Source: Smithellaceae bacterium
Lineage (GTDB): Bacteria; Desulfobacterota; Syntrophia; Syntrophales; Smithellaceae
Direction: 5' to 3'
Assembly: GCA_963682105.1 (NCBI GenBank)
Contig: OY821638.1
Location: forward strand, 4,821,245-4,885,244
DNA length: 64,000 nt
The notes under the pieces are model-generated. The model saw only the letters and a program-made list of their open reading frames with translations. It was not told the DNA's origin and did no database searches. Shown here in pieces: positions 2 through 38,951 of this stretch. The number at the start of each line of letters is the position of its first letter. Position 1 is the first letter of the stretch. The translations under genes were made by a program, and so were the position numbers.

Positions 2-991
2 GGTTCGGTTGGCGCATACCTGGCAGGTTTGGCCGAAAGGCCTGATTTCCTCATCTGCGGAGCGCCGGGCATCTGTGACACCAATGCCAATGCCATGCAG
101 TTCATGTCCGAGTATCTCAATATCCCGCTTTTTCAGCTCACCTTTCCTTCAAATCTGACGGGCAGAAGAATCACTGACTACCAGCGCACGGATTACAAGG
201 CTCTGATTGCATTTATAGAAGAACATGCCGGGGTCCGCCTGGATGAGGATAAACTCAGGTCCGTTCTTGAAGAGCACAGGCGCCAGGATGAGATCATCAA
301 CGAAATCTTTGACCTCACGAGACTGAAACCCTGTCCCATGCCGCCCATTTTCAACCTGTTCCTGTACAGCGGAAAGCTCCAGTCGTCGGGCAGGAAATCA
401 TTCACCACCCTTCTTGAATCCATGCTCGAAGTCGTAAGCGGAAATGCAAAGGCCGGAAGAGCCGGGACAACCTCGGGCAAAGAACGGGCGCGTCTGCTCA
501 TGTGCTACATTGACCATTACACGACGGACGGTCGTTTCTGGCAATGGCTGGACTCGCAGGAGATCAGCCTCCTGCCGACACTCATATTCACCTTTTTCAA
601 CAAGGGGATCAATTACGCGGAAGGCAGGGAGAGTCAGACCTACGAGATGAATACCTCCACCATGGATGCCATGCTTGACTCACTGGCGGACATCAACTCG
701 CGCATGCCCATGATCAAACAACTCCGGGGGCCGTATGATGCGGCAGGGCAGTGGCGGGAAGACCTCTTCTGCATGTCCAGGATCATGAAACCTGATCTGG
801 CGGTCTATATCGGCAGCATGGGATGCCGCAACAGCTATGGCGTAAACAAGCTGATCCAGCGCGATGCCGAGCGCTTTGGCCTGCCGACGCTGCTTTTGTT
901 CGCGGACGCCTTTGACGACCGCGTCGCGTCCTGGGAGTTCTGTGTAGACAAGATCAGCGAGTTCATGCACGTAAGGGGGATTGCCTCATGA
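2..991 (+). CDS. HGD-D family subunit (2-hydroxyacyl-CoA dehydratase / benzoyl-CoA reductase B/C type); 5' end lies outside the window
   Basis: The frame is open from nt 2 to the TTG at 29 that the ORF track used, so the gene starts upstream. The sequence (ICGAPGICDTNANAMQF, AVYIGSMGCRNSYGVNKL, LLLFADAFDDR) resembles the C-terminal two-thirds of HgdA/B-BcrB/C-type subunits. The stop overlaps the next start (ATGA at 988-991). Confidence 0.8.
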   Translation, partial: GSVGAYLAGLAERPDFLICGAPGICDTNANAMQFMSEYLNIPLFQLTFPSNLTGRRITDYQRTDYKALIAFIEEHAGVRLDEDKLRSVLEEHRRQDEIINEIFDLTRLKPCPMPPIFNLFLYSGKLQSSGRKSFTTLLESMLEVVSGNAKAGRAGTTSGKERARLLMCYIDHYTTDGRFWQWLDSQEISLLPTLIFTFFNKGINYAEGRESQTYEMNTSTMDAMLDSLADINSRMPMIKQLRGPYDAAGQWREDLFCMSRIMKPDLAVYIGSMGCRNSYGVNKLIQRDAERFGLPTLLLFADAFDDRVASWEFCVDKISEFMHVRGIAS

Positions 992-1770
992 TTGCAGCCG
1001 GATGCGATGTCGGTTCCCTGACCACCAAAGCGATCATTCTGAACAACACGCGGCTGCTGGGTCATGCCATTGTCCGGTCATCGGTCAACCCCGAGAAATC
1101 GGCTTACGAGGTCATGGAAAAGGCGCTTGCCTCCGCACGGCTTGCGATGGGTGACGTCGCCTTCTGCGTCGGGACAGGTTATGGAAGGGAGCGGATCGGT
1201 TTCGTGCAGAAGACCATTTCCGAAATTTCCTGCCATGCAAAGGGCGCTTATTTCCTCCAGCCGTCCATCCGCACGATCATCGATATCGGCGGACAGGACT
1301 GCAAGGCCATCCGCCTGGACGCAAAGGGGGAGATCGTCAAGTTCATCACCAATGACAAGTGTGCATCCGGCACCGGCAGATTTCTTGAAGTCATGGCGAA
1401 ACTCCTGGGTCTGAAACTCGATGAACTGGGAAGCATCTCGAATCAGGCCTCACAGCCGATCAACCTTGCCTCCACCTGCACGGTATGGGCCCAGGCGGAA
1501 GTCGTCATGCGCCTCAACGATGGCCTGTCCAAAGCGGATCTTGCTGCGGGCATCAATGATGCCATGGCCGCACGCGTTGCCATCCTGGCCCGCTCGGTGG
1601 GTCTCGAAAAGGATGTGTGCATGACAGGCGGCGTGGCGAAGAACACAGGAGTTCTTGAGGCCATGGAAAAGCAGTTGGGCATTCCCATGCGCAGGCTCAG
1701 AGTAGATCCCCAGATGATGGGCGCCCTGGGGGCGGCAGTGTTTGCCCGGGAAAAAACCGGAGGGAAATGA
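988..1770 (+). CDS. BcrAD_BadFG-type ATPase (HgdC / BcrA-BcrD-like electron-activating subunit), copy 1
   Basis: Carries the N-terminal GCDVGSLTTKA, DIGGQD, and the two cluster-cysteine contexts NDKCASGTGRF and STCTVWAQAEV typical of HgdC/BcrAD. ATGA overlaps couple it to both neighbours. Confidence 0.9.
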   Translation: MIAAGCDVGSLTTKAIILNNTRLLGHAIVRSSVNPEKSAYEVMEKALASARLAMGDVAFCVGTGYGRERIGFVQKTISEISCHAKGAYFLQPSIRTIIDIGGQDCKAIRLDAKGEIVKFITNDKCASGTGRFLEVMAKLLGLKLDELGSISNQASQPINLASTCTVWAQAEVVMRLNDGLSKADLAAGINDAMAARVAILARSVGLEKDVCMTGGVAKNTGVLEAMEKQLGIPMRRLRVDPQMMGALGAAVFAREKTGGK

Positions 1771-2555
1771 TGTTTGTAGCGGGATGCGATATCGGATCTT
1801 TAAGCGCCAAGGCCGTCATCATGAAAGATGACCGTATTGTCGCCTCTTCCGTCATCTTCGCGAGGCCGGAGCCGGAAGAATCGGCCCGGGTGGTTATGGA
1901 AGAGGCTTTGAAGAAGGCCGGTTTGTCCATGGATGAGATCGCCTGTTGCGTGGGTACGGGATACGGCAGGAACGCCATTCCCTTTGCCCGGGCCGTGGAG
2001 TCGGAGATCGCCTGCCACGGGAAGGCTGCCCAGTGGCTCAAACCCCAGGTCCGCATGGTCATCGATATCGGGGGCCAGGACGCCAAGGCCATCCGGATCG
2101 ATGAAACGGGCAAGGTCGTTCGCTACGCATACAATGACCGGTGCGCCTCCGGCACGGGCAGGTTCCTTGAGGTGATGGCGGGTTCCATGGGCATCGATCT
2201 CGACGCCATGGGTGATATTTCATTCCAGGCAAGGAATCCCGTCTCTCTGTCCAACCAGTGCGTGGTTTTCGCCGAGACCGAGATCATATCGCTCATCAAT
2301 GAGGGCAGGGACCTTGCGGATATTGTGGGCGGACTGCACAAGGCTTTGTCCCATCGGGTGGCATCGCTGGCCAGGAGCATCGAACTTGAAAGTGAAATCA
2401 CTTTGACAGGGGGGGTGGCGAAAAACCGGGGCATGTTTTGCGCCCTTCAGGAAGCCCTCGGAGTAAAACTGGTCCGTATGGACACGGACCCCCAGATCAT
2501 CGGCGCTGTCGGTGCTGCCCTCATGGCCGGACGGGCAGCCGCCGGGAACGGGTGA
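1767..2555 (+). CDS. BcrAD_BadFG-type ATPase, copy 2 (distinct paralog, tandem with copy 1)
   Basis: Carries GCDIGSLSAKA, DIGGQD, NDRCASGTGRF and NQCVVFAETE. Two different tandem ATPase genes is the arrangement seen in class I benzoyl-CoA reductases (BcrA/BcrD). Confidence 0.9.
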   Translation: MMFVAGCDIGSLSAKAVIMKDDRIVASSVIFARPEPEESARVVMEEALKKAGLSMDEIACCVGTGYGRNAIPFARAVESEIACHGKAAQWLKPQVRMVIDIGGQDAKAIRIDETGKVVRYAYNDRCASGTGRFLEVMAGSMGIDLDAMGDISFQARNPVSLSNQCVVFAETEIISLINEGRDLADIVGGLHKALSHRVASLARSIELESEITLTGGVAKNRGMFCALQEALGVKLVRMDTDPQIIGAVGAALMAGRAAAGNG

Positions 2556-3301
2556 CAGACACAGTGGAACTCTTTACTGAAACCATTTCCGCCGTGCGTG
2601 CTTTTGTCTCACAGACATCCGGCCTGCGATCCTGGATAGCTGATCCGAAACCATCCTGGCCCCCGGGCGGCGGACGGAATATCGTGTTCAAAGAAGACCT
2701 GGGCCTCGAGCTGGGCAGCCCGCAGAAGGAATCCGTATCTTGCCTTCTGTGGACCCATGATCTTGCTTCCATTGAAAACAACAAAGTGATTCTCGTGGGG
2801 CCTGACTTCCCTGAAAGCATGGAACAAAGCCTCCCCTTCGGGAAAGTGGTTCTGGCGGGCGTGGAGGGGTTCACGGAAGACGGCGCCTATGACCTGCACA
2901 AAGATTTGGATTTCCTCCGGTACAGCATCGACCTCAGGGGTTTCATGATGAGGTCTGCATCCCAGTACATGAGGGAATGGTGCCGGATCAGCACTGAAGC
3001 GATCCGGCAGGGCTTTTCCGCTCGTATCCTGGGCTCGGCCCTCATTGGCCTTTTTCTTGAAAAACCCTTTGTGAAGGCCGTGGAAGTCATTTATCTCACC
3101 TCCAGCCCCGAGGATGTGGTCAGGCTCAGGGAGATTACCTCGCCGGCCGAAAAGGTCATCGCAGCCATGAACAAGATGGCCTCGGAAATGGATTTCGAAT
3201 GTGCAAGCTGCGACTACCAGGAGGTATGTGACGATGCCTCCCAGCTCAAGGCCATGCGGGAAAGGCTCATGAAAAAGTCACAGGAGGCCTACGTTGAATG
3301 A
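2552..3301 (+). CDS. Acetyl-CoA synthase (AcsB/CdhC family) middle-domain-like protein, truncated, ending in CxxCx5C
   Basis: I start it at the in-frame GTG at 2552, which overlaps the upstream stop (GTGA); the ORF-track start at 2438 would overlap the ATPase gene by 118 nt. By eye, ILVGPDFPE...LPFGKVVLAG and RISTEAIRQGFSARILG...VEVIYLTSS resemble the ACS middle domain. The C-terminus is FECASCDYQEVC. Function is uncertain. Confidence 0.55.
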   Translation: MTDTVELFTETISAVRAFVSQTSGLRSWIADPKPSWPPGGGRNIVFKEDLGLELGSPQKESVSCLLWTHDLASIENNKVILVGPDFPESMEQSLPFGKVVLAGVEGFTEDGAYDLHKDLDFLRYSIDLRGFMMRSASQYMREWCRISTEAIRQGFSARILGSALIGLFLEKPFVKAVEVIYLTSSPEDVVRLREITSPAEKVIAAMNKMASEMDFECASCDYQEVCDDASQLKAMRERLMKKSQEAYVE

Positions 3302-4064
3302 CACCAGGATAGTGGCGATGTGCGGCAAGGGGGGCGTGGGGAAGACCTCCATTTCCGCGCTCATGGTAAAAAAACTCTCGGAGTCGAACCACCGGAAAGT
3401 TCTCGCCATTGATGCGGATCCTGCCGCGGGGCTTGCAACATCCCTGGGCATCTCCGTGCGCAAGACGGTGGATGATATCCGGAGAGATCTCATCTCAAAG
3501 ATCCGCAAAGGTGATGCGCCGGAAAACCGCCGGACACTGGAGTTGCTCGATTACGAGGTGTTCGACGCCCTCGAAGAACAAAACGGGTATGTCCTGCTCG
3601 CTATCGGAAGGCCTGAAGATGAAGGTTGCTTCTGCAAGGTGAACAACCTGCTCAAGGATATTATCCGTGACCTGACCGGCAAGTTCGATACCGTGCTCAT
3701 CGACGGAGAGGCCGGCATTGAACAGATCAACAGGCGCGTCATGAAGACCGTGGACCATCTGGTCCTTGTCTCGGACACCTCGGTAAAGGGCATCGGTGTG
3801 GCCAATACCATAGCCCTCGTGGCCTCTGATAAAAGGGCCGTCGACTTCAAGCGCATGGGCCTGATCCTCAACCGGGTGAGGGGCGAAGCAGAGGCCCTCG
3901 ACATCAGCCACAGGACAAATCTGGAGATTTACGGATGGCTGTCTGACGACGAGGCCATTCGGGATTTCGATTTCAGGGGCGCCCCCCTGACATCCATGCC
4001 CGAAAACTCACCCAGCCTGGAAATTGTCTCGGATATCCTGAGGAAGATGAATCTCGTTACATAA
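3294..4064 (+). CDS. CooC/AcsF-like MinD-family P-loop ATPase (metallocentre maturation type)
   Basis: TTG start 6 nt after AGGAGG (3282-3287). Has the deviant Walker A CGKGGVGKTS, and a GCFCK (CxC) motif at the position of the CooC metal-binding CxC. Overlaps the upstream gene by 8 nt. Confidence 0.8.
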   Translation: MNDTRIVAMCGKGGVGKTSISALMVKKLSESNHRKVLAIDADPAAGLATSLGISVRKTVDDIRRDLISKIRKGDAPENRRTLELLDYEVFDALEEQNGYVLLAIGRPEDEGCFCKVNNLLKDIIRDLTGKFDTVLIDGEAGIEQINRRVMKTVDHLVLVSDTSVKGIGVANTIALVASDKRAVDFKRMGLILNRVRGEAEALDISHRTNLEIYGWLSDDEAIRDFDFRGAPLTSMPENSPSLEIVSDILRKMNLVT

Positions 4065-5228
4065 ATGACATGGGTCGGGAGGGGGGATGCATTGAAAACA
4101 GATCAACCAAAGATCATGAAGGTGTTTGAAGGTCTTCTGGAAAATCCCCAGAACCGCCTGGTCGAGCAGGCGGCACAAAGCGGGCGTATACCCATCGGGT
4201 ATTCCTGCTCATTCGTTCCCGAACCCCTTCTCATGGCGGACAGGCTCTTCCCGGTGCGTCTCCATGCCATGGGAGTGGCGGGGACGGAGCTTGCCGACAA
4301 TTATCTCTCCAGTCTGCTCTGCTCATACACCCGCAGCATCCTTGAGTTTGCCATGGATGACAGGTACGACCTTATCCGGGGGTGGGTATTCGTTCCGTCG
4401 TGCGCGCACATGCAGCGCCTCACGGACAACCTTGACTATCTCAAGAAACCTTCCTTCATCCATGTTATCGACGTACCGCGCAAAGTGAACAGCGCCACCG
4501 TGGCATGGCAGACAGAAGAGCTTCGTATGCTTGCAGATAAGCTTTCAGAGCATTTCAACGTCGATATAAGTGATCATGCGCTTATGAAGGCCATCGAAGA
4601 GTGGAATCATTTCTGCTCCGTTGTAAGTAAAATCGGAGACCTAAGGAAAAGACCGAATCCTCCCATCACAGGGACCGAATTTCATTGTGCGGTTATGGCG
4701 TCCCTTGCCTCGCCCAAAGACCTGATTCTTCCGTATCTCGAGGCCCTGCACGATGAAATCAAACATCAGGATGCTAAAGAAAAATACCGTGCCCGTCTCA
4801 TGGTGGCAGGCGGCCATCTTCATGACCCTGAGTTCATCCGCGTCATCGAGTCCCAAGGTGGACTTGTAGTAGCCGACCGCTTCTGCACCGGTTCCATACC
4901 CGGCCTCAATCCCGTCAAGGTCAATGGTGACCCCTTCAGGTCACTGGCGGAACAATCCTTTGAGAAGGCACGCTGCCCGCGCATGATGGAAGATTTCGAG
5001 CACCGTCTTAAACTCATCATTGATACGGTAAAGGAATACAAGGTGGATGGCGTTGTGCTCGAGGTTATCAAGTTCTGCGACCTCTGGGGGGTGGATGCCA
5101 TGCCGCTCGTGAGCGCCCTGCGCAACGAAGGCATCCCGGTGCTGAAACTGGAGCGTGAATACCGCCTCGGCAGTGAAGGCCAGCTCCGCACCCGGGTCCA
5201 GGCATTCATTGAGAGTATGGGCAGATAG
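4065..5228 (+). CDS. HGD-D family subunit (HgdB/BcrC-like), module 2 small subunit
   Basis: The motifs IGYSCSFVPEPLL, VFVPSCAHMQRL and DGVVLEVIKFCDLWG are typical of dehydratase/BCR beta-type subunits. An alternative start is TTG 4092, 5 nt after GGGAGGGGGG (4077-4086). Confidence 0.85.
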   Translation: MTWVGRGDALKTDQPKIMKVFEGLLENPQNRLVEQAAQSGRIPIGYSCSFVPEPLLMADRLFPVRLHAMGVAGTELADNYLSSLLCSYTRSILEFAMDDRYDLIRGWVFVPSCAHMQRLTDNLDYLKKPSFIHVIDVPRKVNSATVAWQTEELRMLADKLSEHFNVDISDHALMKAIEEWNHFCSVVSKIGDLRKRPNPPITGTEFHCAVMASLASPKDLILPYLEALHDEIKHQDAKEKYRARLMVAGGHLHDPEFIRVIESQGGLVVADRFCTGSIPGLNPVKVNGDPFRSLAEQSFEKARCPRMMEDFEHRLKLIIDTVKEYKVDGVVLEVIKFCDLWGVDAMPLVSALRNEGIPVLKLEREYRLGSEGQLRTRVQAFIESMGR

Positions 5229-5255: not shown

Positions 5256-6767
5256 ATGACAAACACACGTGCATACCCAAAATCTCTGGTCATGAGACTG
5301 TCGGAGACGGGGAAAAGGTTATGGCAGACATCCCTGCCGGAATATCTCATGAACTCGCCGGACCTGAATGCCGCGCTCACCTATATGAAATACTGGGCGC
5401 TCAACTACAACGAAATCGGAAAGTTCGGAATCGAATGTGCTGTCAAGCTAGGCCCTGTGGGTGCCATCCAGATGATCATCAACAGTCCCTGGCTTTTGAC
5501 CCTGCTGAAGATAAACGGCCTGATGAGGCGTTATGGCCGCGGCAGGAAAGGTCTGTACCTGGAGTCTGTCTGCATGACGCTGAACACCATCGTCACAGGA
5601 ACCAACGACACCTTGAGGCAGATGTTTTTTTATCCTGATAGACTGGTCATCATCGAGGATCTGGTGCCAACGGATATCATGCATGCCATGGGGCTTGCCG
5701 CCTACCAGCTCGAGGGAATGGGAATTATGCTTCCCATCATCGATCAGAACGCGGCCACGAAGTACATCGACGAGGCGGAAAACGAGGGCATGAATCCCGA
5801 TGCCTGTAGCCTGCCAAAAACGACCGTAGGCATGGTTCTTAAGGGCCACATGCCCAAGGGTCTTGCTCTCGTGAGTTCAAATCTTCCTTGTGATGCAGGG
5901 GCAGCCTCATATTCCTTCTTTCAGCGTGCGTACAATATTCCCATCTACCGAGTCGATGTACCATACCATTTCTACAATGAGCGGGCGGAAAACCTTTTCA
6001 TTGAAGATGTGAAGGGCATGATTGCCTGGCTCGAAAAACACACACCCGGCCGCATGGACTGGGATCGTTTCCGGGATATCTGCGAGAACCGCAACCGCAT
6101 GCTGGAACTTGAGCTTGAGCTGTGGGACATGCTGCGTGCACGACCCGCCCCTCTTGCGTCAGAGGCCGTATGGCTGAGCCACCTCTGGCACTATAATGTG
6201 ACACCGGATTATAAAACGTCTGTTCATCTCTTCGAGAATCTGGTGAAGATGGCCAGGAAAAACCTTGAGACCAATACCCCGGCCACGGAGAATGAACGGT
6301 ACCGAACCATCGTGTGGAACCCTCCCTTCCTCCATTTTTCCGACATTTTCAACTGGGCCGAGCGGACCTATGGTCTGACGCTTATGAACGACAGCATGTC
6401 CTATCACCATCACACGCCCATCGACACCTCCACGCCCGAATCTATGTTACGTGGTTGGAGCAGGATCGTCATGCAGGGTCCCATGGTTCGTCATACCCGG
6501 GGACCGGCCGAAAATTACCTCGACGATATTTTCCGCGCACATAAGCAGTTCGATCTTGACATGATATGGATTGCCAACCATGTGGGTTGCAAGGGCGGAC
6601 AGGCCATGAATGGTATTCTGCGTGAAAAATGCCGTGAGAAGAGAATACCTCTGCTAATTCTCGATTACGACCTTAGCGACCCGAGAATTGTTTCCCACGA
6701 CAACATGAAACGGCAGGTGGAGCATTTCATGGACAATGTCATGAAAGCGCCTCGCCTTAAACACTAG
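5256..6767 (+). CDS. HGD-D family subunit (HgdA/BcrB-like), module 2 large subunit
   Basis: 503 aa. Carries NPDACSLPKTTVG, SSNLPCDAGAASY and IWIANHVGCKGGQAMNG, typical of alpha-type subunits. GGAGGA lies 9 nt upstream of the ATG. Confidence 0.85.
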   Translation: MTNTRAYPKSLVMRLSETGKRLWQTSLPEYLMNSPDLNAALTYMKYWALNYNEIGKFGIECAVKLGPVGAIQMIINSPWLLTLLKINGLMRRYGRGRKGLYLESVCMTLNTIVTGTNDTLRQMFFYPDRLVIIEDLVPTDIMHAMGLAAYQLEGMGIMLPIIDQNAATKYIDEAENEGMNPDACSLPKTTVGMVLKGHMPKGLALVSSNLPCDAGAASYSFFQRAYNIPIYRVDVPYHFYNERAENLFIEDVKGMIAWLEKHTPGRMDWDRFRDICENRNRMLELELELWDMLRARPAPLASEAVWLSHLWHYNVTPDYKTSVHLFENLVKMARKNLETNTPATENERYRTIVWNPPFLHFSDIFNWAERTYGLTLMNDSMSYHHHTPIDTSTPESMLRGWSRIVMQGPMVRHTRGPAENYLDDIFRAHKQFDLDMIWIANHVGCKGGQAMNGILREKCREKRIPLLILDYDLSDPRIVSHDNMKRQVEHFMDNVMKAPRLKH

Positions 6768-6781
6768 CTGGAGAGCTCTAA

Positions 6782-8092
6782 ATGCATGCAATCGAAGATG
6801 CTCAACTGTATCGGAAGCTTGGGGGAAAAATAGACAACCTTCACGTGAGGGCGCCCTGGAATGAAACCTGGCACAGCATTCTTAAGGAGCTCTACACCAC
6901 GGATGAGGCCGACGTTGTAGTAAAAATGCCCTACACTTTATCTACACTGGAGCGAATCTCAAAGGTCACCAACGTTTCGCAGACCCGTCTGCAGGGCATC
7001 CTGGAAGGACTGTGCGCCAAGGGGCTTATCCTGGATCTCTGGAATGAAGATCTTGGACGGTTCTTCTATATGCCAAATCCCATAGCCATAGGGATCTTCG
7101 AATTTACGATGATGAGGTCCGGCAACGATCTAAATATGAAGAAGTGGGCCAGGCTCTTTCACGAATACTTCGGCTCCGTTCATGCAGCGAATTTTTCGCA
7201 TCATGAGCAGGTCTCCGCGCTAAGAGTTATCCCCGTCGAAGAATCGGTGAAAGAAGGCCATTACATGGAATTTTTCGGTTACGAAAAAGCCACATCGCTC
7301 ATTGAGAACGCCGGAAAACTGGCCATCGGCGTGTGCTCCTGCAGGAACGAAAAGCTGCATACCGGCATGAAAGAATGCGATGCTCCGCTGGATACCTGCA
7401 GTTTTTTAGGAATCGGTGCGGACTATGCGATCAGAAACAACTTTGCACGAGAGGTCACGAAATCCGAGATGCTGGATAATCTTGCCCGGTCCAGGGAATA
7501 CGACCTCGTGTTCTGTGCCGTGAACACCCGGAAGAACCCCATGGCTATCTGTCATTGCTGCAAATGCTGCTGTAATTTTCTGGGCGGCCTGACCCGCTAC
7601 GGGTATTCGAACAGTGTCATCACTTCAAGTTTTATTTCAAGTATCGATGCGGGAAAGTGCACGGGGTGCGGGAAATGCGTGAAGGTGTGTCCGGTGAACG
7701 CATTGAGCCTGGTTTCTGCACATGATCCTGAAAATAATAAAAGGAAGACGGTTCAGCTCAATACAGAGAGATGCCTGGGCTGCGGGCTATGCCCGGCAAA
7801 GTGTGCGACCGCAGCGATAGAGATGATGCTGCGCACCGGTGAAGTACTTCACCCCGAATCCATGTTCGAGGTGACCATCCTCGCATCGCTGGAACGCGGC
7901 ACGCTGCAGAATCAGATCTTCGACAACCCCCAGAGTGTGCCCCAGGAATTCATGAGGTCTTTTGTGGGTGCGTGCCTAAGACTGTCCCCGGTCAAGAGGG
8001 CCTTGATGAGCGATACATTCAGATCCACTTTTCTGAGAACCGCGAAGTTGACCGCGAAGTTTCAGGGCAAGGGATGGATGCTGGATATTTAG
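6782..8092 (+). CDS. Multi-cluster Fe-S protein: Cys-run CHCCKCCC plus a C-terminal 2x[4Fe-4S] ferredoxin domain
   Basis: CTGCGKCVKVCP and CLGCGLCPAKC are classical ferredoxin motifs. Additional cysteine groups are CSCRNEKLHTGMKEC and AICHCCKCCCNF. The N-terminal ~100 aa look winged-helix-like (weak evidence). Confidence 0.7.
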   Translation: MHAIEDAQLYRKLGGKIDNLHVRAPWNETWHSILKELYTTDEADVVVKMPYTLSTLERISKVTNVSQTRLQGILEGLCAKGLILDLWNEDLGRFFYMPNPIAIGIFEFTMMRSGNDLNMKKWARLFHEYFGSVHAANFSHHEQVSALRVIPVEESVKEGHYMEFFGYEKATSLIENAGKLAIGVCSCRNEKLHTGMKECDAPLDTCSFLGIGADYAIRNNFAREVTKSEMLDNLARSREYDLVFCAVNTRKNPMAICHCCKCCCNFLGGLTRYGYSNSVITSSFISSIDAGKCTGCGKCVKVCPVNALSLVSAHDPENNKRKTVQLNTERCLGCGLCPAKCATAAIEMMLRTGEVLHPESMFEVTILASLERGTLQNQIFDNPQSVPQEFMRSFVGACLRLSPVKRALMSDTFRSTFLRTAKLTAKFQGKGWMLDI

Positions 8093-8129
8093 TTCCGGCG
8101 CCATGAAATCATCACGACAGGAGAAGAAT

Positions 8130-8924
8130 ATGACAAAAAAGTATTTCGGCGGATGCGATGTGGGGTCGACAACAGGAAAAGCCGTGATCATCGATGAAGG
8201 CGACAACATCGTCGCCTCCTCCATTGTGCCGAGTGAAATCGACCCTGAGCTGACATCCACGCTCGCCCTTGAAAAAGCCTGTACGCAGATCCAGGGGCTT
8301 AGTGGGCGTGAGGGTCTCCATTATCTGATAGGTACGGGCTACGGCCGTAATGAAGTGCCCTTTGCCCATGAGAACATATCGGAGATCAGTTGTCATGCCA
8401 TGGGCGCATTTTTCTGCAAGCCGGAGATCAAGACCATTGTGGATATCGGCGGTCAGGACGTGAAGGCGATTGCTGTTGACGGCAACGGGTCAGTCATGGA
8501 GTTCGCCATGAACGATAAGTGCGCGGCAGGCACCGGCAGGTTCTTCGAGGCGATGAGCCGGATCTTCCGCATGGATCTTGAGAAGTTTTCAGATCTTTCC
8601 CTGAAGGCGAACAGGATTATCCCGGTAACGGCTCAATGCAGTGTCTTTGCCGAAAGCGAGGTCATCAGTCTTCTGGCCAGAAAGAATCCACCCGATGAGA
8701 TTGCCGCCGGCATCCAGACCGCCGTGTCCAAACGCTGTTTCACCCTGCTCAAGCGTATCGGCATGCGCCCCCAGGTGACGGTTACGGGCGGTTGTGCGAA
8801 GAACAGGGGCCTCATCAAGGCGCTCGCCGGCATCATCAATATGGACGTAACCAGCCTCCCCGTAGACCCTCAGATTATAGGTGCCCTGGGGGCGGCGGTG
8901 TATGCAAAGCAAAAAGGAATGTAA
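8130..8924 (+). CDS. BcrAD_BadFG-type ATPase, copy 3 (HgdC-like activator for module 2)
   Basis: Start moved to ATG 8130, 6 nt after AGGAG. Carries GCDVGSTTGKA, DIGGQD, NDKCAAGTGRF and AQCSVFAESE. Confidence 0.9.
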   Translation: MTKKYFGGCDVGSTTGKAVIIDEGDNIVASSIVPSEIDPELTSTLALEKACTQIQGLSGREGLHYLIGTGYGRNEVPFAHENISEISCHAMGAFFCKPEIKTIVDIGGQDVKAIAVDGNGSVMEFAMNDKCAAGTGRFFEAMSRIFRMDLEKFSDLSLKANRIIPVTAQCSVFAESEVISLLARKNPPDEIAAGIQTAVSKRCFTLLKRIGMRPQVTVTGGCAKNRGLIKALAGIINMDVTSLPVDPQIIGALGAAVYAKQKGM

Positions 8925-8954: not shown

Positions 8955-10196
8955 ATGGGCAGGAATCTCGATAACCTTTTCGTATATCCAAAGCAGTTGA
9001 TGGATGATGAATCCCTGAGTGTCGTGAGACTTGTCAGGCAATGGTCCGACAAGGAGATCGTGACCAAGCGCATGGAATATCGTGAGGACTATGAGAAGCT
9101 CTTCGCGCTGAAGAGAAAAAATCTCTGCATCGATCTCGGACTCCAGAAGCTCACCGTCCCGGCCGATCTCGGAGGGTTCGGATGGAACAGCCCTTCAAAG
9201 GCCCCGGCCTTGCTCGCCCTTGCCTGTGAGACCGGACGCGCCGATGCATCCATAGGCGTCCTTGCAGCGGCATCCTGGGCGCTGTTCCTCATGTTTGCCT
9301 GTAAGCACAATCACAAAGACAGTCTCTGCGGCGCTTTGGCATCCCGGTATTCGGAAGAAGCGGTCCGGACTCCGGCTTTCATCCTGACAGGCCCCGGGAG
9401 AAAGGGAATAGAGACCCCTCTTTTCTTCGGCAGGTCTGTTCTGGCGCTTGCCGAAAGATCCGAAGCAGGCCTCACCCTGAACGGCAAAGACCTCCGTCCT
9501 CTCATCGCAGGCGGCATGGCCGATCTCTTTTGCGTAGTGTACGCTGACGAAAACGGCAAGGCCGGTATCGCGCTTGTACCCGCGGATGCAATGGGCATAA
9601 AACGAGGCCCGTCCATTCTCATGACCGGGCTTAATGCCTGCGGGAATTCACAGATCGATTTCGATCAAGTACCTTTAGCCGTGGAAAATATTCTGGATCA
9701 GGATGGAAATATTGAAGAGCTGTACACCTGGGCCAATCTGCTTCTCGGCGGTGTGAGTGTCGGCGCTGCAATGAATTTCTTTGAACTGCTGGCGGATTGG
9801 AGCGATAACCGGACCATCAAGGGAGGCATCATCCTGAAGGAAAACCCCCTGTGCGCATCGGTTCTTGCCGATGTCGCCGGGGAGATCGCCATGGCAAGGC
9901 TGCTGCTGGGCGATTTAGCCGCAATCATTGCGACGCAGACGGAATCCCGGGCGGAGACCATCCGGCGCGCCTTCACTTACGCCGGGATGATCGGCCACCG
10001 GGTTCAGCAGGGCGTCATGCATGCCATGAACCGCGGCCTGGAGCTCATGGGGTCGGCGGGCTACGCGAGGGAGTGGCATGTAGAAAAGCACTGGAGGGAC
10101 GTGAAAACGATCCAGTCGATACTTTACGGAGTCGCTGCCGAGGCGCCGATCAAAATGGACACTGCCCGGTTTTTCTATAACTGTACTGAGATTTAA
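8955..10196 (+). CDS. Acyl-CoA dehydrogenase family protein (atypical C-terminal motif)
   Basis: GGAGGAG precedes the ATG. The C-terminal EKHWRDVKTIQSILYGV aligns with the ACAD signature EK.MRDAKI.QIYEGT, but the Glu is absent. Confidence 0.8.
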   Translation: MGRNLDNLFVYPKQLMDDESLSVVRLVRQWSDKEIVTKRMEYREDYEKLFALKRKNLCIDLGLQKLTVPADLGGFGWNSPSKAPALLALACETGRADASIGVLAAASWALFLMFACKHNHKDSLCGALASRYSEEAVRTPAFILTGPGRKGIETPLFFGRSVLALAERSEAGLTLNGKDLRPLIAGGMADLFCVVYADENGKAGIALVPADAMGIKRGPSILMTGLNACGNSQIDFDQVPLAVENILDQDGNIEELYTWANLLLGGVSVGAAMNFFELLADWSDNRTIKGGIILKENPLCASVLADVAGEIAMARLLLGDLAAIIATQTESRAETIRRAFTYAGMIGHRVQQGVMHAMNRGLELMGSAGYAREWHVEKHWRDVKTIQSILYGVAAEAPIKMDTARFFYNCTEI

Positions 10197-10210
10197 GGAG
10201 AGGGTTGACC

Positions 10211-11485
10211 ATGAAACATATTGACGAATTCTCCCGGTCCGAAGAGTACATCTCCCCGTTTGACAGGCACTTCAGACGCCTGCTCAGAAAAACGATCGAG
10301 GAATCGATCATGCCCTACCGGAGGCAGTATGATGAGGACTGGAAGGATCATCATCTTATCGAGCCTGCATTCCACAGGATCATGGTCGGGCTCGGGCTTC
10401 AAAAGGGCCTGTTTCCTATGGAATATGGAGGGATGGGCCTGGCTAAATCCGATTATTTTTTCAGGGCGGGCTATATGGTCTGCGAGGAACTGGGCAGAGC
10501 CGATACCGGTTTTGCCGTCGCACTGGGAGTGACATACTGGCCCCTGCTCGTGATTTCGGTTGATCCTTATGTGAACGAGCGGCTCATTGCCGAGTTTGCG
10601 CCTATGTTCTGCAATGCGGACAAGGCTGTATTTGCAGCCAATGCAATGACCGAACCCCAGGGAGGTTCCGACATCGAAAACCTCGGCCTGCTCGGCGGTA
10701 AAACCATCCGCACGACGGCCCGCCTCGATGGCGACGAGTGGGTGATCAACGGCCACAAACTCTGGCCCACCAATTCAGGCGGCGTGTCGAAACTGTTCGG
10801 TGTACCTTGCACGACCAAGCCCGGATCAGATGATCCAAATGATTTTGCCTTTATTTATGTGCCTGCCGATCTGCCGGGCGTGACCCAGGGCGGCGCCTAT
10901 GAGAAAGCGGGCATGGCGGCGGACAAGAATGGCGATATCTGGTTGGAGGATGTCCGTGTCCCTTCCTGGTACCGGGCTCACGGTCCGGGCAGGGATGCCG
11001 AGGCCTTCTACCAGCTTATTCCTTTCGGCCAGGTTATGAGCTGCGCATTCCTGACCGGGGCCATGATGAACCTCTATGAGCGACTGTATGAATTTGTATC
11101 CACCCGCACATACAACAATCGTCCGCTCAAAGAGAACGACGCAGTAGCAGGAATCATCGGCCGTATAGCAGGTGACATCGACATTTGCAGAATTCTCGGC
11201 TACGAGTCTGCCATGATCGGGGACCGCAGGAACAAGCCCTATGGGAAGCCGCTGATTTCGGAAGACGTGGTGGGCAGGATCAGAAACATCAAGGACTTCG
11301 TGTCGGATAGAGCGGTGGACTGTTTTGGCAAGGCCATGGACGTGCTTGGCCTCTATGGCGCGGACCGCGACTGGGACATCGAGAAGCACTGGCGCGACAT
11401 TAAGATCGTTCAACTCTGGATGGGTGGCAAGCAGCTCTGCCAGATGGAGGCCGCCCGATACTTCTTTAACTGCGAGACTCTCTGA
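10211..11485 (+). CDS. Acyl-CoA dehydrogenase family protein (atypical C-terminal motif), paralog of the previous gene
   Basis: ATG 10211 is preferred over TTG 10205. Carries AMTEPQGGSD and EKHWRDIKIVQLWMGG, where Met replaces the canonical catalytic Glu. The C-terminal ARYFFNCETL matches ARFFYNCTEI of the neighbour. Confidence 0.8.
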   Translation: MKHIDEFSRSEEYISPFDRHFRRLLRKTIEESIMPYRRQYDEDWKDHHLIEPAFHRIMVGLGLQKGLFPMEYGGMGLAKSDYFFRAGYMVCEELGRADTGFAVALGVTYWPLLVISVDPYVNERLIAEFAPMFCNADKAVFAANAMTEPQGGSDIENLGLLGGKTIRTTARLDGDEWVINGHKLWPTNSGGVSKLFGVPCTTKPGSDDPNDFAFIYVPADLPGVTQGGAYEKAGMAADKNGDIWLEDVRVPSWYRAHGPGRDAEAFYQLIPFGQVMSCAFLTGAMMNLYERLYEFVSTRTYNNRPLKENDAVAGIIGRIAGDIDICRILGYESAMIGDRRNKPYGKPLISEDVVGRIRNIKDFVSDRAVDCFGKAMDVLGLYGADRDWDIEKHWRDIKIVQLWMGGKQLCQMEAARYFFNCETL

Positions 11486-11492
11486 GGTGACC

Positions 11493-11948
11493 ATGGATAA
11501 CAAACAGGACACAGGAATATTGGAAAATCAAACAAGCGTTGCTGAAGAGCTCCTTGCCAGCACCTCCTTCAAGGACAGCCTGCGGCTGTTCCTGAAGAAC
11601 ATCGATCCGGAGTCCGGTCCCGCGCTTGTCCGCACACTTATGGGCAAAGACGTTGAGGTCCCCATGGCGGTAATAAGCGCCATGCCGGCAATAGCGAACT
11701 GCCTTATCAAGATGGCCATGGAAATGGTGGCGCAGATACGGAAATACCCTGCACCGATGCTTACAGGCATGACGGAATCCCTGCTACAGGATGTGGACAG
11801 GGAAACGCTTGCCCGACTGATCGGGGAGATTCGGGAACTCGGCAAAGATATGGCTCCTGTCTTCAGAGCCTTTTCAGCGTCCCTCGAAGAACAGTCTTCC
11901 AAAGAAAAGGAGATGACATCATGCAAACGGGATCTTCCCCGCAAGTAA
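11493..11948 (+). CDS. Hypothetical protein (151 aa), paralog of the next gene
   Basis: ATG at 11493 lies 8 nt after the upstream stop. It shares the pattern ...D(P/S)(E/D)SG...V(R/K)TLMG(K/E)D(V/P)EV... with the downstream ORF. I recognise no family. Confidence 0.6.
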   Translation: MDNKQDTGILENQTSVAEELLASTSFKDSLRLFLKNIDPESGPALVRTLMGKDVEVPMAVISAMPAIANCLIKMAMEMVAQIRKYPAPMLTGMTESLLQDVDRETLARLIGEIRELGKDMAPVFRAFSASLEEQSSKEKEMTSCKRDLPRK

Positions 11949-12565
11949 ATGGCGACATCCTGAAAGCACTCCTGCGGTCCACGCTGGTCAAGGACCTCAT
12001 CAGGATCAACATGAACTCCAGGCATCCTGATTCAGGCAGGAGGACAGTGAAGACGCTTATGGGAGAAGACCCGGAGGTCTTCTTTGCGATCACCGGCGGC
12101 CTTCCCGTGACCGTCAACAACATGATCGGAGCGCTCACCGAGCTGGCGATACAACTGAACAAGTTATCGCCCGAACTTATGAAGTCATTCATGTCAAGCC
12201 TTGCGGACGACATCGACAGAGAGGCGGTCAGGGGGTGCGCAAAAGCCTGGACCGATCTGGCAGCGATGATGCTGCAGGCATCTCCGGAAATGAAGGCTCG
12301 CATTATACAAACCATACTGGCTGAAGGGCCCAGGATCAATGCCAATGCCATCAATGCCTTTTCACGATTCGTGAACGACATCACCCGGGACGACCCCGAG
12401 GCCTTCGGCAGATTCGTATCCAAAGTGACCGAAAACGTTGATGGCAAAGAACTGAGCAAAGCCGCCGCCACCATGACCAACGCTTTCCTCGACCGGAAAA
12501 TGCGCTGGTCGTCCTGGTTCTGGAAGCTGCTGTGGGGCAGGATGAAAAAGAAATTCGGGAGATGA
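11921..12565 (+). CDS. Hypothetical protein (214 aa), paralog of the previous gene
   Basis: AAGGAG (11907-11912) lies 8 nt upstream of the ATG. Overlaps the previous ORF by 28 nt. Mostly helical-looking, with a basic/aromatic C-terminal tail (KMRWSSWFWKLLWGRMKKKFGR). Confidence 0.6.
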   Translation: MQTGSSPQVNGDILKALLRSTLVKDLIRINMNSRHPDSGRRTVKTLMGEDPEVFFAITGGLPVTVNNMIGALTELAIQLNKLSPELMKSFMSSLADDIDREAVRGCAKAWTDLAAMMLQASPEMKARIIQTILAEGPRINANAINAFSRFVNDITRDDPEAFGRFVSKVTENVDGKELSKAAATMTNAFLDRKMRWSSWFWKLLWGRMKKKFGR

Positions 12566-12829: not shown

Positions 12830-13204
12830 ATGAAAGGGAAGTGGAAGATTGCAATGGCAGTGACCGTTGTCGCCGCGCTGATCCTGGTTGCGTTTGGCGC
12901 TTTGGCGGTCGAAACGGAGAAAAAAGCCAAGAGTCCCAAACAGCAGGCCCAGCAGGAAAAAATGAAAGCCTGCAATGCCGACGCCAAAGCCAAGGGGCTC
13001 AAGGGCGACGAACGCAAAAAGTTTATGAGTGAATGCCTCAAGGGCGACAAGGACACCTCGGCGACGCCTGCAACGCCGGCCAAAGACACCAAGGCGGCCC
13101 AGCAGGAAAAGATGAAAGCCTGCAACGCCGATGCCAAGGCCAAAGGTCTCAAGGGGGACGAACGCAAGAAATTCATGAGCGAATGCCTCAAGGCCGCTCC
13201 ATAA
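12830..13204 (+). CDS. psiF: PsiF-repeat protein (two PsiF repeats) with signal peptide
   Basis: AAGGAGG precedes the ATG and the N-terminus is hydrophobic. Two copies of AQQEKMKACNADAKAKGLKGDERKKFMSECLK match the PsiF repeat pattern (C-x20-C with KGD.R..FM..CLK). Confidence 0.85.
   Translation: MKGKWKIAMAVTVVAALILVAFGALAVETEKKAKSPKQQAQQEKMKACNADAKAKGLKGDERKKFMSECLKGDKDTSATPATPAKDTKAAQQEKMKACNADAKAKGLKGDERKKFMSECLKAAP
12947..13192. repeat. Internal tandem repeat of the psiF-like gene (2 x 96 nt, period 150 nt)
   Basis: 12947-13042 and 13097-13192 encode 32 identical residues. By my codon-by-codon comparison they differ at 11 synonymous third positions. Confidence 0.9.
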
Positions 13205-34487: not shown

Positions 34488-37400
34488 TTATCTGGATATT
34501 TTTCGATCAATGGCGATTGATTTTGTGCCATCACGCTCCACCATGGTCTGAATATCGCCCTTGCCTTTGAAGCGTTTGACATTCAGCATGAAGATTTCCA
34601 GCTTGCTTAAGACGTTGGGCGGCAGCAGGTTGCCGTCGATTTCAATGGAAATCGTCGGATATTTTCTTTCTCTGGCCCAAGGCGTGTACAATCCTTCAAT
34701 GACGCGGCCGATCAGGCAGGCAAACGGCGAAATGTTCACAATACCAGAGAAGCCGTCCATCATGGCGGTGGCGGCCACGCCGCTGGAGATACTGATTTCC
34801 GAATACAGTTCGAGTCCAACAAAATGCTTTTCGGTATTTTTCATGATCGCTTTCATGTCGTGAGGCGTGTGCGGAACCAGGCCGGTCGTACTCAAAGTGT
34901 CTCGAACTTTTCTTTCCACGTTCTTTTTATAGATATGTTCGATTCTCCAGCCGATGAGGTCCCGGAATTCCTGCGCAAAGACGCGCCGATACCATGGGTG
35001 TAGGCTGAGTTTCTTTTTAAGCTCGTAATGACGGACAAAATCGCAGTAGTAAAACCATTCGGCGACATTCGACACCTTACCGACAATGCCGTGGCGGCTG
35101 AACTGCTGAATGAGTTCGTCGACGGCAAAATCATCGCGCCGGACGTAGATTTCCCCGACAATCAGAACCTTGGGACAGTCTTCCATTTTCCGTGCCAGCG
35201 GGATTTTAGAGATCGTGTTGGCGATTTCCTTGAGAACCGGCAGGACTTTGGTGATATCCTTCTCGGCCACTCCGAGCATCTTTTGCCAGATCCCGTCGTA
35301 AATCCGCATGGCCTCGGCGGGATCGGCGGCGCATGTTCTAAGCGATGTTTCAACATCTTTCATATAGTCGCCGATAATCGCCGCCCACCAGGCGTACTTG
35401 GTAAATTCCGGGCCCAGTTCCGTGTAGGAATTATCCGAATCCATCGTGAAGACCACGACGTTTTCCATGCGTAGATCGCGGAAGAGATTTTCATAGAAGA
35501 CGAAATACTGGCCGGTCCGGCAGGGACCGGTCGTGGTCGGGACAAACAGAATATAAATTTCATCTTTGCGGTATTCATCTGACGCCAGATATTTCAACGC
35601 ACTCCCCAGCACCAGGTGTGAAGGCAGACATTCCTTGCCGGATGCGTGGTTGCGGGCCAGTTGCAGGGTATAGATATCCGGAACGGGCATCGCTTGTGCA
35701 TTGAGTCCCAGACCGCGAATCGTCGCACCGACCATCTCCGCTGAAAGTCTGCCCATGTTGGACAGAAGCAGCTTGACGCGCGGGTTGTTCTTGATCGGTA
35801 TTTTCTCTCCGGTAACGGTGTTTTTAATATGAATCTCTTCACCTTTGTTGTTGATGAAGCGCAGGCCGTTATCGTAGCGTTCCTCGCGGATGTCCGTGAG
35901 TTTGGAGCGGTATCCTTCGATGATATCCAGAAACGCCTCAATGCGTGTGTCGACACCGGCATCCGCCGTGTGCGAATCCAGCTCGAGAATCAGGAACGGC
36001 TTCGTGCCCATGATCCATTTCAGATAATGCAGCATGAAGGAGTCGGGTGCGCAGGAGAAGTTGGAAATGTAGGTTACAAAGATGTTGTCTTCATCTTTAA
36101 GCAGCATGGCGGCTTTCATATCCTGCTGCCCGTAATACCAGTACATGTTGGGATAAATAGGCAAATCGGCAAAAGGCAGTATATCGAAGGGAATAACCGA
36201 ATGTCCGCGGGAAGTGTACTTCCGGGGGATGCCCATGTTGGCGTCGGCGGTAAAGGAATTGTAAGGCCGTCCCAGAACGGCAATCACCGGGCGTTTGGCC
36301 TTTTTGGATTCCTCAAGCGCCTCTCTGCCCAGCGCAGTGAACCGGGCAAAGCATTCCATCTGCTTTTGATACGCGAGATCAAATGCATTCCGGGCGTCGC
36401 TTTCGTTTACGCCCAGAGCTGCGGCCATGGCGATAAACGGTTCGGCGGCTTTTTCCAGACCGTACATAAAACTGACGACCGGTGCGAGGTATTTTCCCTC
36501 CGGAATTTCCGGGAAGGCTTTCTTGATGTAGTAGGGCAGGCTCTGCGTGATCGGACAGAAGTTGGCCGGAGAGTTCTTTTCGTAGCTTTCCATGTCGCGG
36601 AAGTGCGGCAGGAAAATGTAATCGATCTTGCGGTTGAAAATATCCTGAACCGCGCCGTGCGCAATTTCCGCCGGGAAACAATAACTGCTTTCTACTCGGG
36701 CCGTTCCTTCATGGGCGATTTCTTCAGAAACAAATGTTTCTATGCCCAGCGCATGGAAAAACCAGGCATACAGAGGCCAGAGCGTATAAATGGAGAAGCA
36801 GCGGGGAATGCCGACAACGTAGGTGTGTTTTTTAACCAGTTCTTCGGGATTCGGCGCGCATTCCTTAAAGAGGATGTCGTTGCGTTTCTCGATGTAATCG
36901 ACAACGCCGGCTTCATTGAATTCTTTCTTCTTCCGGATATTGGCGTATTTGTTACAGCGGCCGCCGAACATGTATTTATGCCCGTTGACGTTGAGAATGC
37001 GGATCGGGCAGAAATTATCGCAGGCTTTGCATTGGAATTCCTTCTCGTGGACGATGCTGGTCGCAAGGATCGAATCGATATCATAGGATGACTTGGACAG
37101 GAAGCCTTCCTCAACTTTCTGTTTGGCAAGGATTCCCACACCGAAACACCCCATCAGTTCAGGATCGGGAGGGACGAGAATGTTTTTATCCAACAACATC
37201 GCAAACGCCAGCGGAACAGCCTTGTTTTTGGCGACGCCGCCCTGCAGGACGATGTTTTTGCCGATGTTACGGTTGCCGACCACCCGGTTGAGGTAGTTCG
37301 ATACGATCGATGTGACGATGCCGGCCGTGATGTCTTCGCGTGAGGCGCCCTGCTGCACGGCATTGCGAATGTCAGAGTTAATAAAGGCGGAGCAATGTTC

Positions 37401-38798: not shown

Positions 38799-38913
38799 AA
38801 AAACTCCTCTAAGTAAATAATCCGTACTGTCATTATTACGATTAGCGCTTATCGTCAAGTACCCAATCGCATAAAAACAAACAGGATAACGTAATGTAAG
38901 GAGTGTGAAAACG

Positions 38914-38951
38914 AAAGAAAAAAAGCTGATGGCCGTTGCCATCAGCTTTTT
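38914..38951 (-). terminator. Rho-independent terminator after atpB
   Basis: 10-bp stem AGCTGATGGC / GCCATCAGCT with a 4-nt loop. An A-run on one side and a T-run on the other give a U-tract on the minus strand. Confidence 0.8.

Follow-up and report, generated by a model that had tools for sequence, protein, structure and literature searches.

The CdhCL and CooCL genes and their operon

The stretch of DNA analyzed in this study (the window) comprises 64,000 nucleotides of a Smithellaceae bacterium genome, namely positions 4,821,245 to 4,885,244 of the forward strand of contig OY821638.1 (assembly GCA_963682105.1), and all positions below are counted from its first letter. Near its left end lie two overlapping genes, here called CdhCL and CooCL, whose predicted products resemble the middle (A2) domain of acetyl-CoA synthase (ACS) and the CooC/AcsF-type ATPases, respectively. 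The pair closes a translationally coupled operon that encodes an ATP-driven iron-sulfur (Fe-S) enzyme of the benzoyl-CoA reductase/2-hydroxyacyl-CoA dehydratase (BCR/HAD) type. Both open reading frames (ORFs) were recovered as the original prediction had drawn them, including an overlap of 8 nt (TTGAATGA). The stop of the preceding gene, BcrAD_2, overlaps the CdhCL start by 4 nt at the junction GTGA, and the CooCL stop is followed by the start of HGDD_a at 4065 with zero gap. The ORF listing showed that the whole left 12.6 kb of the window is a single co-directional run of genes (Table 1), in which a set of HGD-D and BcrAD genes precedes the pair (module 1) and another follows it (module 2).

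Gene order was compared among 34 species-level genomes and three metagenome contigs carrying one homologue, and was judged where the contig was long enough. The conserved order was two acyl-CoA dehydrogenase genes (ACAD1 and ACAD2), three genes of unknown function, an HGD-D gene of 377 amino acids (aa), a 79-aa gene, an HGD-D gene of 467 aa, two BcrAD genes, CdhCL and CooCL, and the HGD-D/BcrAD/CdhCL/CooCL part of it was kept in nearly all of the 34 species-level loci. Module 2 followed in many loci and was missing from six (L001, L020, L023, L029, L031 and L037) in which the pair was still there. Because the pair persisted without the downstream module, it forms the conserved 3' terminus of the HGD-D/BcrAD module that lies upstream, and its assignment to module 2 was rejected. 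The original prediction was right to place the pair among BCR/HAD genes, and its picture of a free-standing pair between two modules was not upheld. In the window and in one related locus (L006), the ACAD genes were placed after module 2.

The operon partners of the pair are two HGD-D subunits (PF06050) and BcrAD/HgdC-type ATPases (PF01869), and the same architecture was found in related loci. In NCBIfam, none of the host HGD-D and BcrAD proteins reached the equivalog cutoff of a characterised BCR, HAD or double-cubane cluster protein (DCCP), the sub-cutoff scores being 202 bits against 380 for bzdQ (BcrAD_1), 167 against 350 for double_cubane, and 94 against 454 for bzdN; BcrAD_1 did pass the TIGR00241 cutoff, with 240 bits. 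The large HGD-D subunit of module 1 has seven conserved Cys and one His, and the 5' end of its gene, together with the remainder of module 1, lies outside the window to the left. A ferredoxin gene is missing from module 1, whereas module 2 has its own Fer4 protein.

Table 1. Genes and protein motifs in the left part of the window
Feature	Position	Strand	Evidence or remark
HGD-D large subunit of module 1, C-terminal 320 aa	29-991	+	PF06050, 116 bits; ortholog is the 467-aa HGD-D before BcrAD1 in all syntenic loci
BcrAD_1, ASKHA-type electron-activating ATPase subunit of module 1	988-1770	+	PF01869, 204 bits
BcrAD_2, second ATPase subunit of module 1	1767-2555	+	PF01869, 191 bits
CdhCL, 249 aa, stand-alone ACS derivative, GTG start	2552-3301	+	PF03598, profile and fold matches
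ACS A2-homologous segment of CdhCL (residues 44-184)	2681-3103	+	HMMER alignment, Pfam envelope
CASCDYQEVC, C217-x2-C220-x5-C226 motif of CdhCL	3200-3229	+	
CooCL, 256 aa, CooC/AcsF-family SIMIBI ATPase, TTG start	3294-4064	+	PDB profile match, bit scores, neighbor-joining tree
C10, then deviant Walker A GKGGVGKT, of CooCL	3321-3347	+	invariant in the family alignment
C112-F-C114, CxC metal-binding motif of CooCL, inside IGRPEDEGCFCKVNNLL	3627-3635	+	aligned with CYC of CooC1
HGDD_a, HGD-D subunit of module 2	4065-5228	+	PF06050, 288 bits; NF040772 double_cubane 167 bits, below cutoff
HGDD_b, second HGD-D subunit of module 2	5256-6767	+	PF06050, 178 bits
Fer4_436, 436 aa, 2x[4Fe-4S] ferredoxin domain with CHCCKCCC motif, putative module-2 electron carrier	6782-8092	+	
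BcrAD_3, sole activase-type ATPase of module 2	8103-8924	+	PF01869, 179 bits
Two acyl-CoA dehydrogenase-family genes	8955-10196, 10205-11485	+	conserved in the cluster of the Desulfomonilia/Syntrophales clade
Two conserved helical proteins, no Pfam family	11493-11948, 11921-12565	+	BLASTP to L001 homologues, E 3e-22 and 2e-42

Ancestry of CdhCL and CooCL

CdhCL matched the Pfam family PF03598 (CdhC) with 40.5 bits (cutoff 24; E 3e-10) over residues 44-184, and scored 35 bits against the NCBIfam cdhC model, for which the cutoff is 356. A family profile of 24 homologues matched only ACS/CdhC chains among PDB sequences (E 2e-9 to 5e-5). The alignment spanned residues 335-480 of Moorella ACS and 17-163 of Methanosarcina CdhC, that is, the A2 domain, and covered exactly the segments on which the claim of ACS middle-domain homology had been built. 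The AlphaFold model (pLDDT 82.5, pTM 0.81) gave 23 PDB matches at E <= 1e-3 in Foldseek, all of them to ACS (1e-11 to 2e-6), the next match having an E value of 0.39; the PF03598 search and the structural comparison, both named as checks in the original prediction, thus agreed. The protein is predicted to consist of an N-terminal helix/strand extension, the A2 domain, a linker helix and a C-terminal Cys motif, and shares with ACS the A2 sequence motifs GPD..., LPFG and Q...W.R.S. Both CdhCL and CooCL are under purifying selection, with ratios of nonsynonymous to synonymous substitution (dN/dS) of 0.11-0.17.

The Cys motif was placed by hhalign alignment of the CdhCL family profile with full-length CdhC from 80 archaeal cdh loci. 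Global and local alignments had probabilities of 99.8% and 99.6% (local E 9e-25) and ran through the linker helix; with a single deletion of 3 residues, they brought C217, C220 and C226 into register with A-cluster Cys 1, 2 and 3, respectively. The alignment stopped immediately past the third Cys, and CdhCL terminates 23 residues beyond it. CdhCL thus lacks the A3 domain, along with the fourth cubane Cys and the Cys-Gly-Cys nickel site; that the protein stops before these last two had been read in the original prediction. The same prediction had matched the motif to the first three A-cluster Cys with a spacing of x2/x8; the match stood, and the spacing had to be corrected to x2/x5.

CdhCL has five Cys in total (64, 144, 217, 220 and 226), all conserved in its clade, and the same clade-wide conservation was seen for every Cys of CooCL. 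Across the whole family, only C-x2-C-x5-C was invariant, C64 and C144 being confined to the Desulfomonilia/Syntrophales clade. One subclade has an extra Cys 3-5 residues upstream, yielding C-x3-5-C-x2-C-x5-C, which is similar to the [4Fe-4S] motif found in endonuclease III and MutY. The independent gain of a fourth Cys in this subclade argued that the site is a cubane in need of a fourth ligand. Family-wide invariance of the motif alone, the fourth Cys of the subclade and the clade-wide Cys conservation together pointed to a real Fe-S site.

Taken by sequence and modeled fold, CdhCL is a stand-alone ACS derivative in which A2, the helix linking A2 to A3, and Cys 1-3 of the A-cluster cubane remain. 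It is not an ACS, as three of the four defining ACS features examined failed: an A3 domain with the full set of A-cluster ligands, the acetyl-transfer residues, and a gene context of carbon monoxide dehydrogenase (CODH) or corrinoid iron-sulfur protein (CFeSP). The A2 fold and sequence was the one feature found.

In ACS, acetyl-CoA is mainly bound by A2, its adenine stacks on Trp405 of the Clostridium autoethanogenum enzyme, and Arg383 and His386 of A2 (same numbering), near the thiol end, are implicated in acetyl transfer (bioRxiv 10.1101/2024.08.05.606187). Trp405 corresponds to Moorella W427 and aligns with the invariant W143 of CdhCL, and in the HMMER alignment Q138, W143 and R145 fall on Moorella Q422, W427 and R429. 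Because the Trp that stacks on the CoA adenine is retained, CdhCL may still bind CoA or an acyl-CoA. CdhCL could then be a CoA- or acyl-CoA-binding subunit or sensor that delivers the substrate or gates the use of electrons or ATP, with CooCL only maturing its metal site; the alignment of the invariant Q138/W143/R145/S147 with the stacking Trp and Q...W.R.S agrees with such a role, as do the acyl-CoA thioester substrates of the partner enzymes. However, the HGD-D subunits themselves bind the acyl-CoA substrates, the Clostridial clade has lost the Trp (REQVRVS instead), and the equivalents of Arg383 and His386 are H116 and L119, a mapping made by HMMER sequence alignment only and held with moderate confidence. 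We consider a substrate-binding role improbable.

For CooCL, the best PDB match was CooC1 (3kje, E 6e-17), followed by MinD proteins at E 1e-10 and worse. The original prediction had reported the P-loop GKGGVGKT and a GCFC at the position of the CooC CxC, and both were borne out; in the alignment to CooC1, GCFC lines up with the CYC metal site. The CxC was invariant in the family and present in all distant partners, and is absent from MinD. Bit scores of CooCL were 145-171 against archaeal ATPases encoded next to cdhC, to which it is 33-38% identical, 60-94 against the other, cdhA-proximal archaeal CooC types, 65 against CooC1 and 37-44 against MinD. A neighbor-joining tree made the CooCL and cdhC-adjacent clades sisters, set CooC1 and the remaining archaeal CooC types apart in a clade of their own, and left MinD outside. 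The residues flanking the CxC followed the same pattern, as IGRPEDEGCFCKVNNLL in CooCL and MGRPEGSGCYCYVNNLL in the cdhC-adjacent ATPases were nearly identical, while CooC1 has EIKKGGSQCYCRENSFL. By these relationships, CooCL is a member of the CooC family, standing next to the archaeal cdhC-adjacent ATPases within it. This agreed with the earlier expectation of clustering with CooC/AcsF rather than ParA/MinD; a MinD/ParA partition identity was rejected, since MinD scores lay below those of the CooC types and the CxC is present. NCBIfam has no CooC/AcsF model, and true cdh-operon ATPases showed the same sub-threshold MinD matches as CooCL. Upstream of cdhA, one archaeal cdh locus (L127:1308-2881) has two adjacent genes for accessory ATPases, of which one is CooC1-like and the other intermediate toward the cdhC-adjacent/CooCL branch, with 94 bits to CooCL.

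The fold alone was non-discriminating, as the CooCL model matched CooC1, MinD, NifH and BchL equally well in Foldseek. The likeness to NifH and BchL would suit a second ATP-driven electron injector, in which the CooCL dimer and CdhCL share a cluster, each contributing Cys, and ATP hydrolysis by CooCL lowers its potential, as happens in the nitrogenase Fe protein, another protein of the SIMIBI fold. The CxC is located at the CooC dimer interface (3kji), CdhCL has no conserved fourth ligand, and C10 provides a third invariant Cys in CooCL of the Desulfomonilia/Syntrophales clade. However, C10 is missing in the Clostridial clade, no redox cluster is known in any CooC-family member, and the BcrAD ATPases already do such a job, making a second injector very improbable.

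The archaeal order cdhA-B-C-ATPase-D-E was confirmed in one locus (L050). AcsF is described as the ATP-dependent Ni insertase of ACS by Gregg et al. (2016), as cited in PMC10134865, and we infer that the cdhC-adjacent ATPase is its archaeal counterpart. As the closest relatives of CooCL directly follow cdhC, CdhCL and CooCL look like a co-opted cdhC-acsF pair, which most probably was recruited as one unit with the gene order of cdhC and its accessory ATPase. The gene that CooCL adjoins encodes an ACS derivative itself lacking Ni ligands, and there is no CODH or ACS nearby.

Family distribution and gene contexts

The pair is not peculiar to this genome and belongs to a large family. When 1.84 billion representative proteins were searched exhaustively with the family profile, 663 CdhCL clusters (50% identity) were returned at E <= 1e-3 and 487 at E <= 1e-10. 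The best 150 of the 663 were all stand-alone proteins of ~230-275 aa, or fragments of such. Hosts of the pair were Desulfomonilia, Syntrophales, other Deltaproteobacteria and gut Clostridia. Eight distant members (25-45% identity) were examined, and every gene context repeated the association with HGD-D and BcrAD. In distant Deltaproteobacteria the order was HGD-D, HGD-D, one or two BcrAD genes, CdhCL and CooCL; in gut and digester Clostridia (Oscillospiraceae, Eubacteriales) it was CooCL, HGD-D, HGD-D, BcrAD, a 52-55-aa protein with a single transmembrane segment, and CdhCL, with an optional second HGD-D pair, so that CooCL stands at the operon start, apart from CdhCL. A further arrangement was P0241, in which CdhCL and a 2x[4Fe-4S] ferredoxin domain are naturally fused in one protein. 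A second candidate fusion, P0390 (331 aa, ENA contig), was rejected, as it contains an exact internal duplication of ~85 residues and is probably an assembly artefact.

Several small or unassigned proteins accompany these genes. Clostridial-type loci have conserved proteins of 52-66 aa with one hydrophobic helix and no Cys, located before CdhCL (L042:7834-8001, L048:3479-3646, L044:1414-1578, L131:8839-8997) and after the second HGD-D pair (L042:11575-11766), which hints at a membrane attachment of the complex. Helical proteins of ~140 aa, 205 aa and 423-495 aa (L001:3271-5597; L040:2428-3873), none with a Pfam family, also occur with the module; the largest lies just upstream of the first HGD-D and is kept even in distant loci (L001 against L040, E 2e-27). 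The two helical proteins of the window have homologues in L001 that gave no Pfam match, and in most loci this pair lies between ACAD2 and module 1. Fer4_436 of module 2, which has an N-terminal region without family assignment, is conserved in many related loci.

The original prediction had found no CODH, full ACS, CFeSP or methyltransferase in the window, and this was borne out by family searches of all window ORFs of at least 180 aa, which returned no CODH, full ACS, CFeSP or related methyltransferase. Searches by tblastn with archaeal CdhA, the A3 domain of CdhC, CdhD and CdhE likewise gave no match in the window, nor any within 10 kb in 48 related loci (L001-L048), so the further question raised earlier, of a nearby CODH/ACS locus, was also answered in the negative within that range.

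Automatic names of homologues in JGI and NCBI are 'CO dehydrogenase/acetyl-CoA synthase beta subunit', 'carbon monoxide dehydrogenase' and 'CO dehydrogenase maturation factor', and source annotations also include 'hypothetical protein'. Since members of the family are mis-annotated as CO dehydrogenase or as the ACS beta subunit, false Wood-Ljungdahl calls in metagenome studies are possible. In agreement with the original view that the pair could not be assigned to a described system, our literature search found no paper describing the pair or giving the CdhCL family a function; the only trace found was a domain-annotation paper of 2015 (PMC4443539), in which UniProt B8FZT4 of Desulfitobacterium hafniense DCB-2, a candidate cultured carrier, appears as a stand-alone partial PF03598 domain.

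In three loci (L008, L011 and L036), two genes were inserted between CdhCL and CooCL. In L011 (10731-12571) the insert lies in the same operon and encodes a methyltransferase of the URO-D family (388 aa, PF01208, 194 bits) and a B12-binding corrinoid protein (225 aa, DPHDLG motif); the CdhCL-CooCL spacing is the same in L008 and L036, and probably in L014 too. A corrinoid protein beside an ACS fragment is a striking coincidence; it could just as well indicate that methoxylated aromatic substrates are O-demethylated. Along with the two ACAD genes, the O-demethylase-type genes of some loci suggest (methoxy)aromatic or alicyclic acyl-CoAs as substrates of the module.

Together with the automatic database names, these inserts would be the grounds for assigning the pair to genuine one-carbon (C1) metabolism, as a split ACS with CODH/ACS encoded elsewhere, or for regarding it as the decaying remnant of an acs operon. 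The data contradict this reading, in that CdhA, A3, CdhD and CdhE are missing over the range searched, the nickel ligands and acetyl-transfer residues are absent, and the linkage to HGD-D and BcrAD is near-invariant. The family, moreover, has 663 clusters that are uniform in length (~240 aa) and evolve under purifying selection. We regard either version as hardly credible.

Elsewhere in the window, a gene at 12830-13204 (+) encodes a small secreted Lys-rich protein in which KMKACNADAKAKGLKGDERKKFMSECLK is duplicated internally. A fourth BcrAD-family system of the window is encoded at 34488-38942 (-), as a protein of 1484 aa that fuses two BcrAD_BadFG ATPase domains with DUF2229 ('CoA enzyme activase' type). 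Between 22607 and 31217 on the minus strand lies a probable aromatic or acyl-CoA catabolic cluster with two short-chain dehydrogenases/reductases, an amidohydrolase, an AMP-binding CoA ligase, an AraC regulator and two HpaB-family proteins (4-hydroxyphenylacetate hydroxylase/4-hydroxybutyryl-CoA dehydratase fold).

Possible roles and comparison with known systems

As a tentative account, which we favor without holding it to be probable, we propose that CdhCL carries a low-potential Fe-S center, conceivably Ni-bridged, which is loaded by CooCL, and serves as a dedicated electron entry to the BcrAD dimer. The C-terminal Cys triad of CdhCL would bind a [4Fe-4S]-type center, the fourth ligand being C144 or C64 in this clade, the extra upstream Cys in the four-Cys subclade, or a ligand from a partner protein. 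CooCL would dimerize on ATP, take up metal at its CxC, and load or remodel the CdhCL center, much as AcsF does on the A-cluster. Holo-CdhCL would then dock on the BcrAD ATPase dimer and supply low-potential electrons, thereby taking the role and operon position of the dedicated ferredoxin in bcrCBAD-fdx and bzdNOPQ-M operons, in which the ferredoxin gene reportedly comes after the ATPase genes. An electron-transfer role was suggested by the position of CdhCL directly after BcrAD in nearly all contexts, by the lack of a ferredoxin gene in module 1 when module 2 has one, by the fusion to a ferredoxin domain in P0241, and by descent from the A-cluster, whose potential is known to be very low. An action of CooCL on CdhCL was suggested by its closeness to the cdhC-adjacent ATPases in scores and tree, and by the archaeal gene order.

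Several observations weigh against this account. A profile of the C-terminal 80 residues of CdhCL, searched against PDB sequences, returned coiled-coil designs and no ACS, and Exonuclease V, which has a C-x2-C-x5-C motif, appeared at an E value of 1.6 only; homology of the Cys motif thus rests on the full-length profile-profile alignment. Confidence of the AlphaFold model fell below a pLDDT of 50 only at the Cys region and the last residues. Since a fourth ligand is not conserved beyond the Desulfomonilia/Syntrophales clade, the site may be something other than a simple cubane. The label 'AcsF-type' for CooCL was drawn from the archaeal cdhC-adjacent ATPases and not from bacterial AcsF, and the P0241 fusion is one 50%-identity cluster on 2-kb contigs. 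In a Syntrophales metagenome-assembled contig (L030:3914-5826), CdhCL directly follows the two helical proteins with no HGD-D or BcrAD between; this is the sole exception seen to the BcrAD-CdhCL adjacency, and the contig ends within CdhCL. Ordinary ferredoxins need no dedicated CooC-type chaperone, which fits maturation or a heterometal site better.

Maturation is the main rival to the electron-donor account and, although we think it unlikely, deserves consideration. The original prediction had put forward both roles, metallocluster maturation and a new redox partner, and these are still the foremost candidates. CdhCL would be an adaptor or scaffold and CooCL an ATP-driven insertase that together build or metal-load a special cluster of the catalytic HGD-D subunits or the bridging cluster of BcrAD, and both would stay outside the working enzyme. 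CooC and AcsF are maturation factors (for AcsF, according to Gregg et al. 2016, as cited in PMC10134865). A three-Cys site in which no fourth ligand is conserved is the usual mark of a transient carrier of clusters or metals, and the seven conserved Cys and one His of the large module-1 HGD-D suggest a complex cluster. The position of Clostridial CooCL at the operon start means that its client need not be CdhCL alone, whereas the conserved order of cdhC followed by its ATPase suggests CdhCL as that client. The ferredoxin fusion fits electron transfer better, and the tight, translationally coupled place after BcrAD suggests production in stoichiometric amounts. To our knowledge, characterised BCRs and the double-cubane protein have also been produced in active form without such factors.

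A bolder and rather doubtful idea is that CdhCL holds a minimal remnant of the A-cluster, in which the cubane is tied through a bridging C220, the equivalent of Moorella C509, to Ni or another heterometal delivered by CooCL. The corrinoid and methyltransferase inserts of three loci suggest a still bolder variant, with organometallic (methyl-metal) chemistry at the CdhCL site.

BCR/HAD-type enzymes carry out some of the hardest reductions in anaerobic metabolism, such as dearomatization and ketyl-radical dehydration. The accepted view is that they require no more than HGD-D subunits, a BcrAD-type ATPase and a ferredoxin or flavodoxin of generic kind. Our study indicated that a large, phylogenetically broad BCR/HAD subgroup, found in Deltaproteobacteria from peat, groundwater and digesters and in abundant animal-gut Clostridia, carries two extra genes derived from the CODH/ACS machinery. 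If CdhCL is a dedicated low-potential donor, it would explain how electrons are supplied to these enzymes in syntrophs and gut anaerobes. If CdhCL and CooCL form a maturation pair or a Ni-bridged center, AcsF/CooC chaperone biology would extend past C1 metabolism, and the system would offer a natural model of a minimal A-cluster. Should the Ni or heterometal reading be true, these would be the first Ni- or otherwise heterometal-dependent members among BCR/HAD enzymes, and an extant form intermediate between simple Fe-S proteins and the active site of ACS.

Among known systems, ACS (AcsB/CdhC, PF03598; PDB 1oao, 3git, 9c0s) shares with CdhCL the A2 fold and motifs, the linker helix and the first three cubane Cys in register. 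CdhCL differs in being a stand-alone protein of ~245 aa without A1, A3, the fourth cubane Cys or the Cys-Gly-Cys Ni site, in its Cys spacing (x5, against x8 in ACS), in the non-conserved acetyl-transfer Arg and His, and in a family-specific stretch of 40 N-terminal residues. In the loci examined it was never beside CODH or CFeSP, and was linked instead to BcrAD and HGD-D genes. CooCL, for its part, shares with the AcsF/CooC ATPases (CooC1, 3kje; the archaeal ATPase between cdhC and cdhD) the GKGGVGKT motif, the aligned CxC with its near-identical flanking signature, and a place directly downstream of an ACS-type gene. However, it forms its own clade, has a client without a Ni site, possesses one more invariant Cys ahead of the P-loop within this clade, and is encoded in BCR/HAD operons, at the operon start in Clostridia.

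With the ferredoxins of class I BCRs (Thauera Fdx after bcrCBAD, Azoarcus BzdM after bzdNOPQ), CdhCL shares the operon position after the ATPase genes and the proposed donor role; its fold is unrelated, with a single three-Cys (or four-Cys) site on an ACS A2 scaffold, and it has its own chaperone-type ATPase. DCCP, DCCP-R and the 2-hydroxyacyl-CoA dehydratases with their activators resemble the present system in their HGD-D and BcrAD/HgdC-type partner genes, although the scores here fell below the equivalog cutoffs, and we know of no characterised DCCP or 2-hydroxyacyl-CoA dehydratase system with CdhCL or CooCL components. What is new at this locus is that a BCR/HAD-type system has two additional conserved components, which were taken over from the CODH/ACS machinery.

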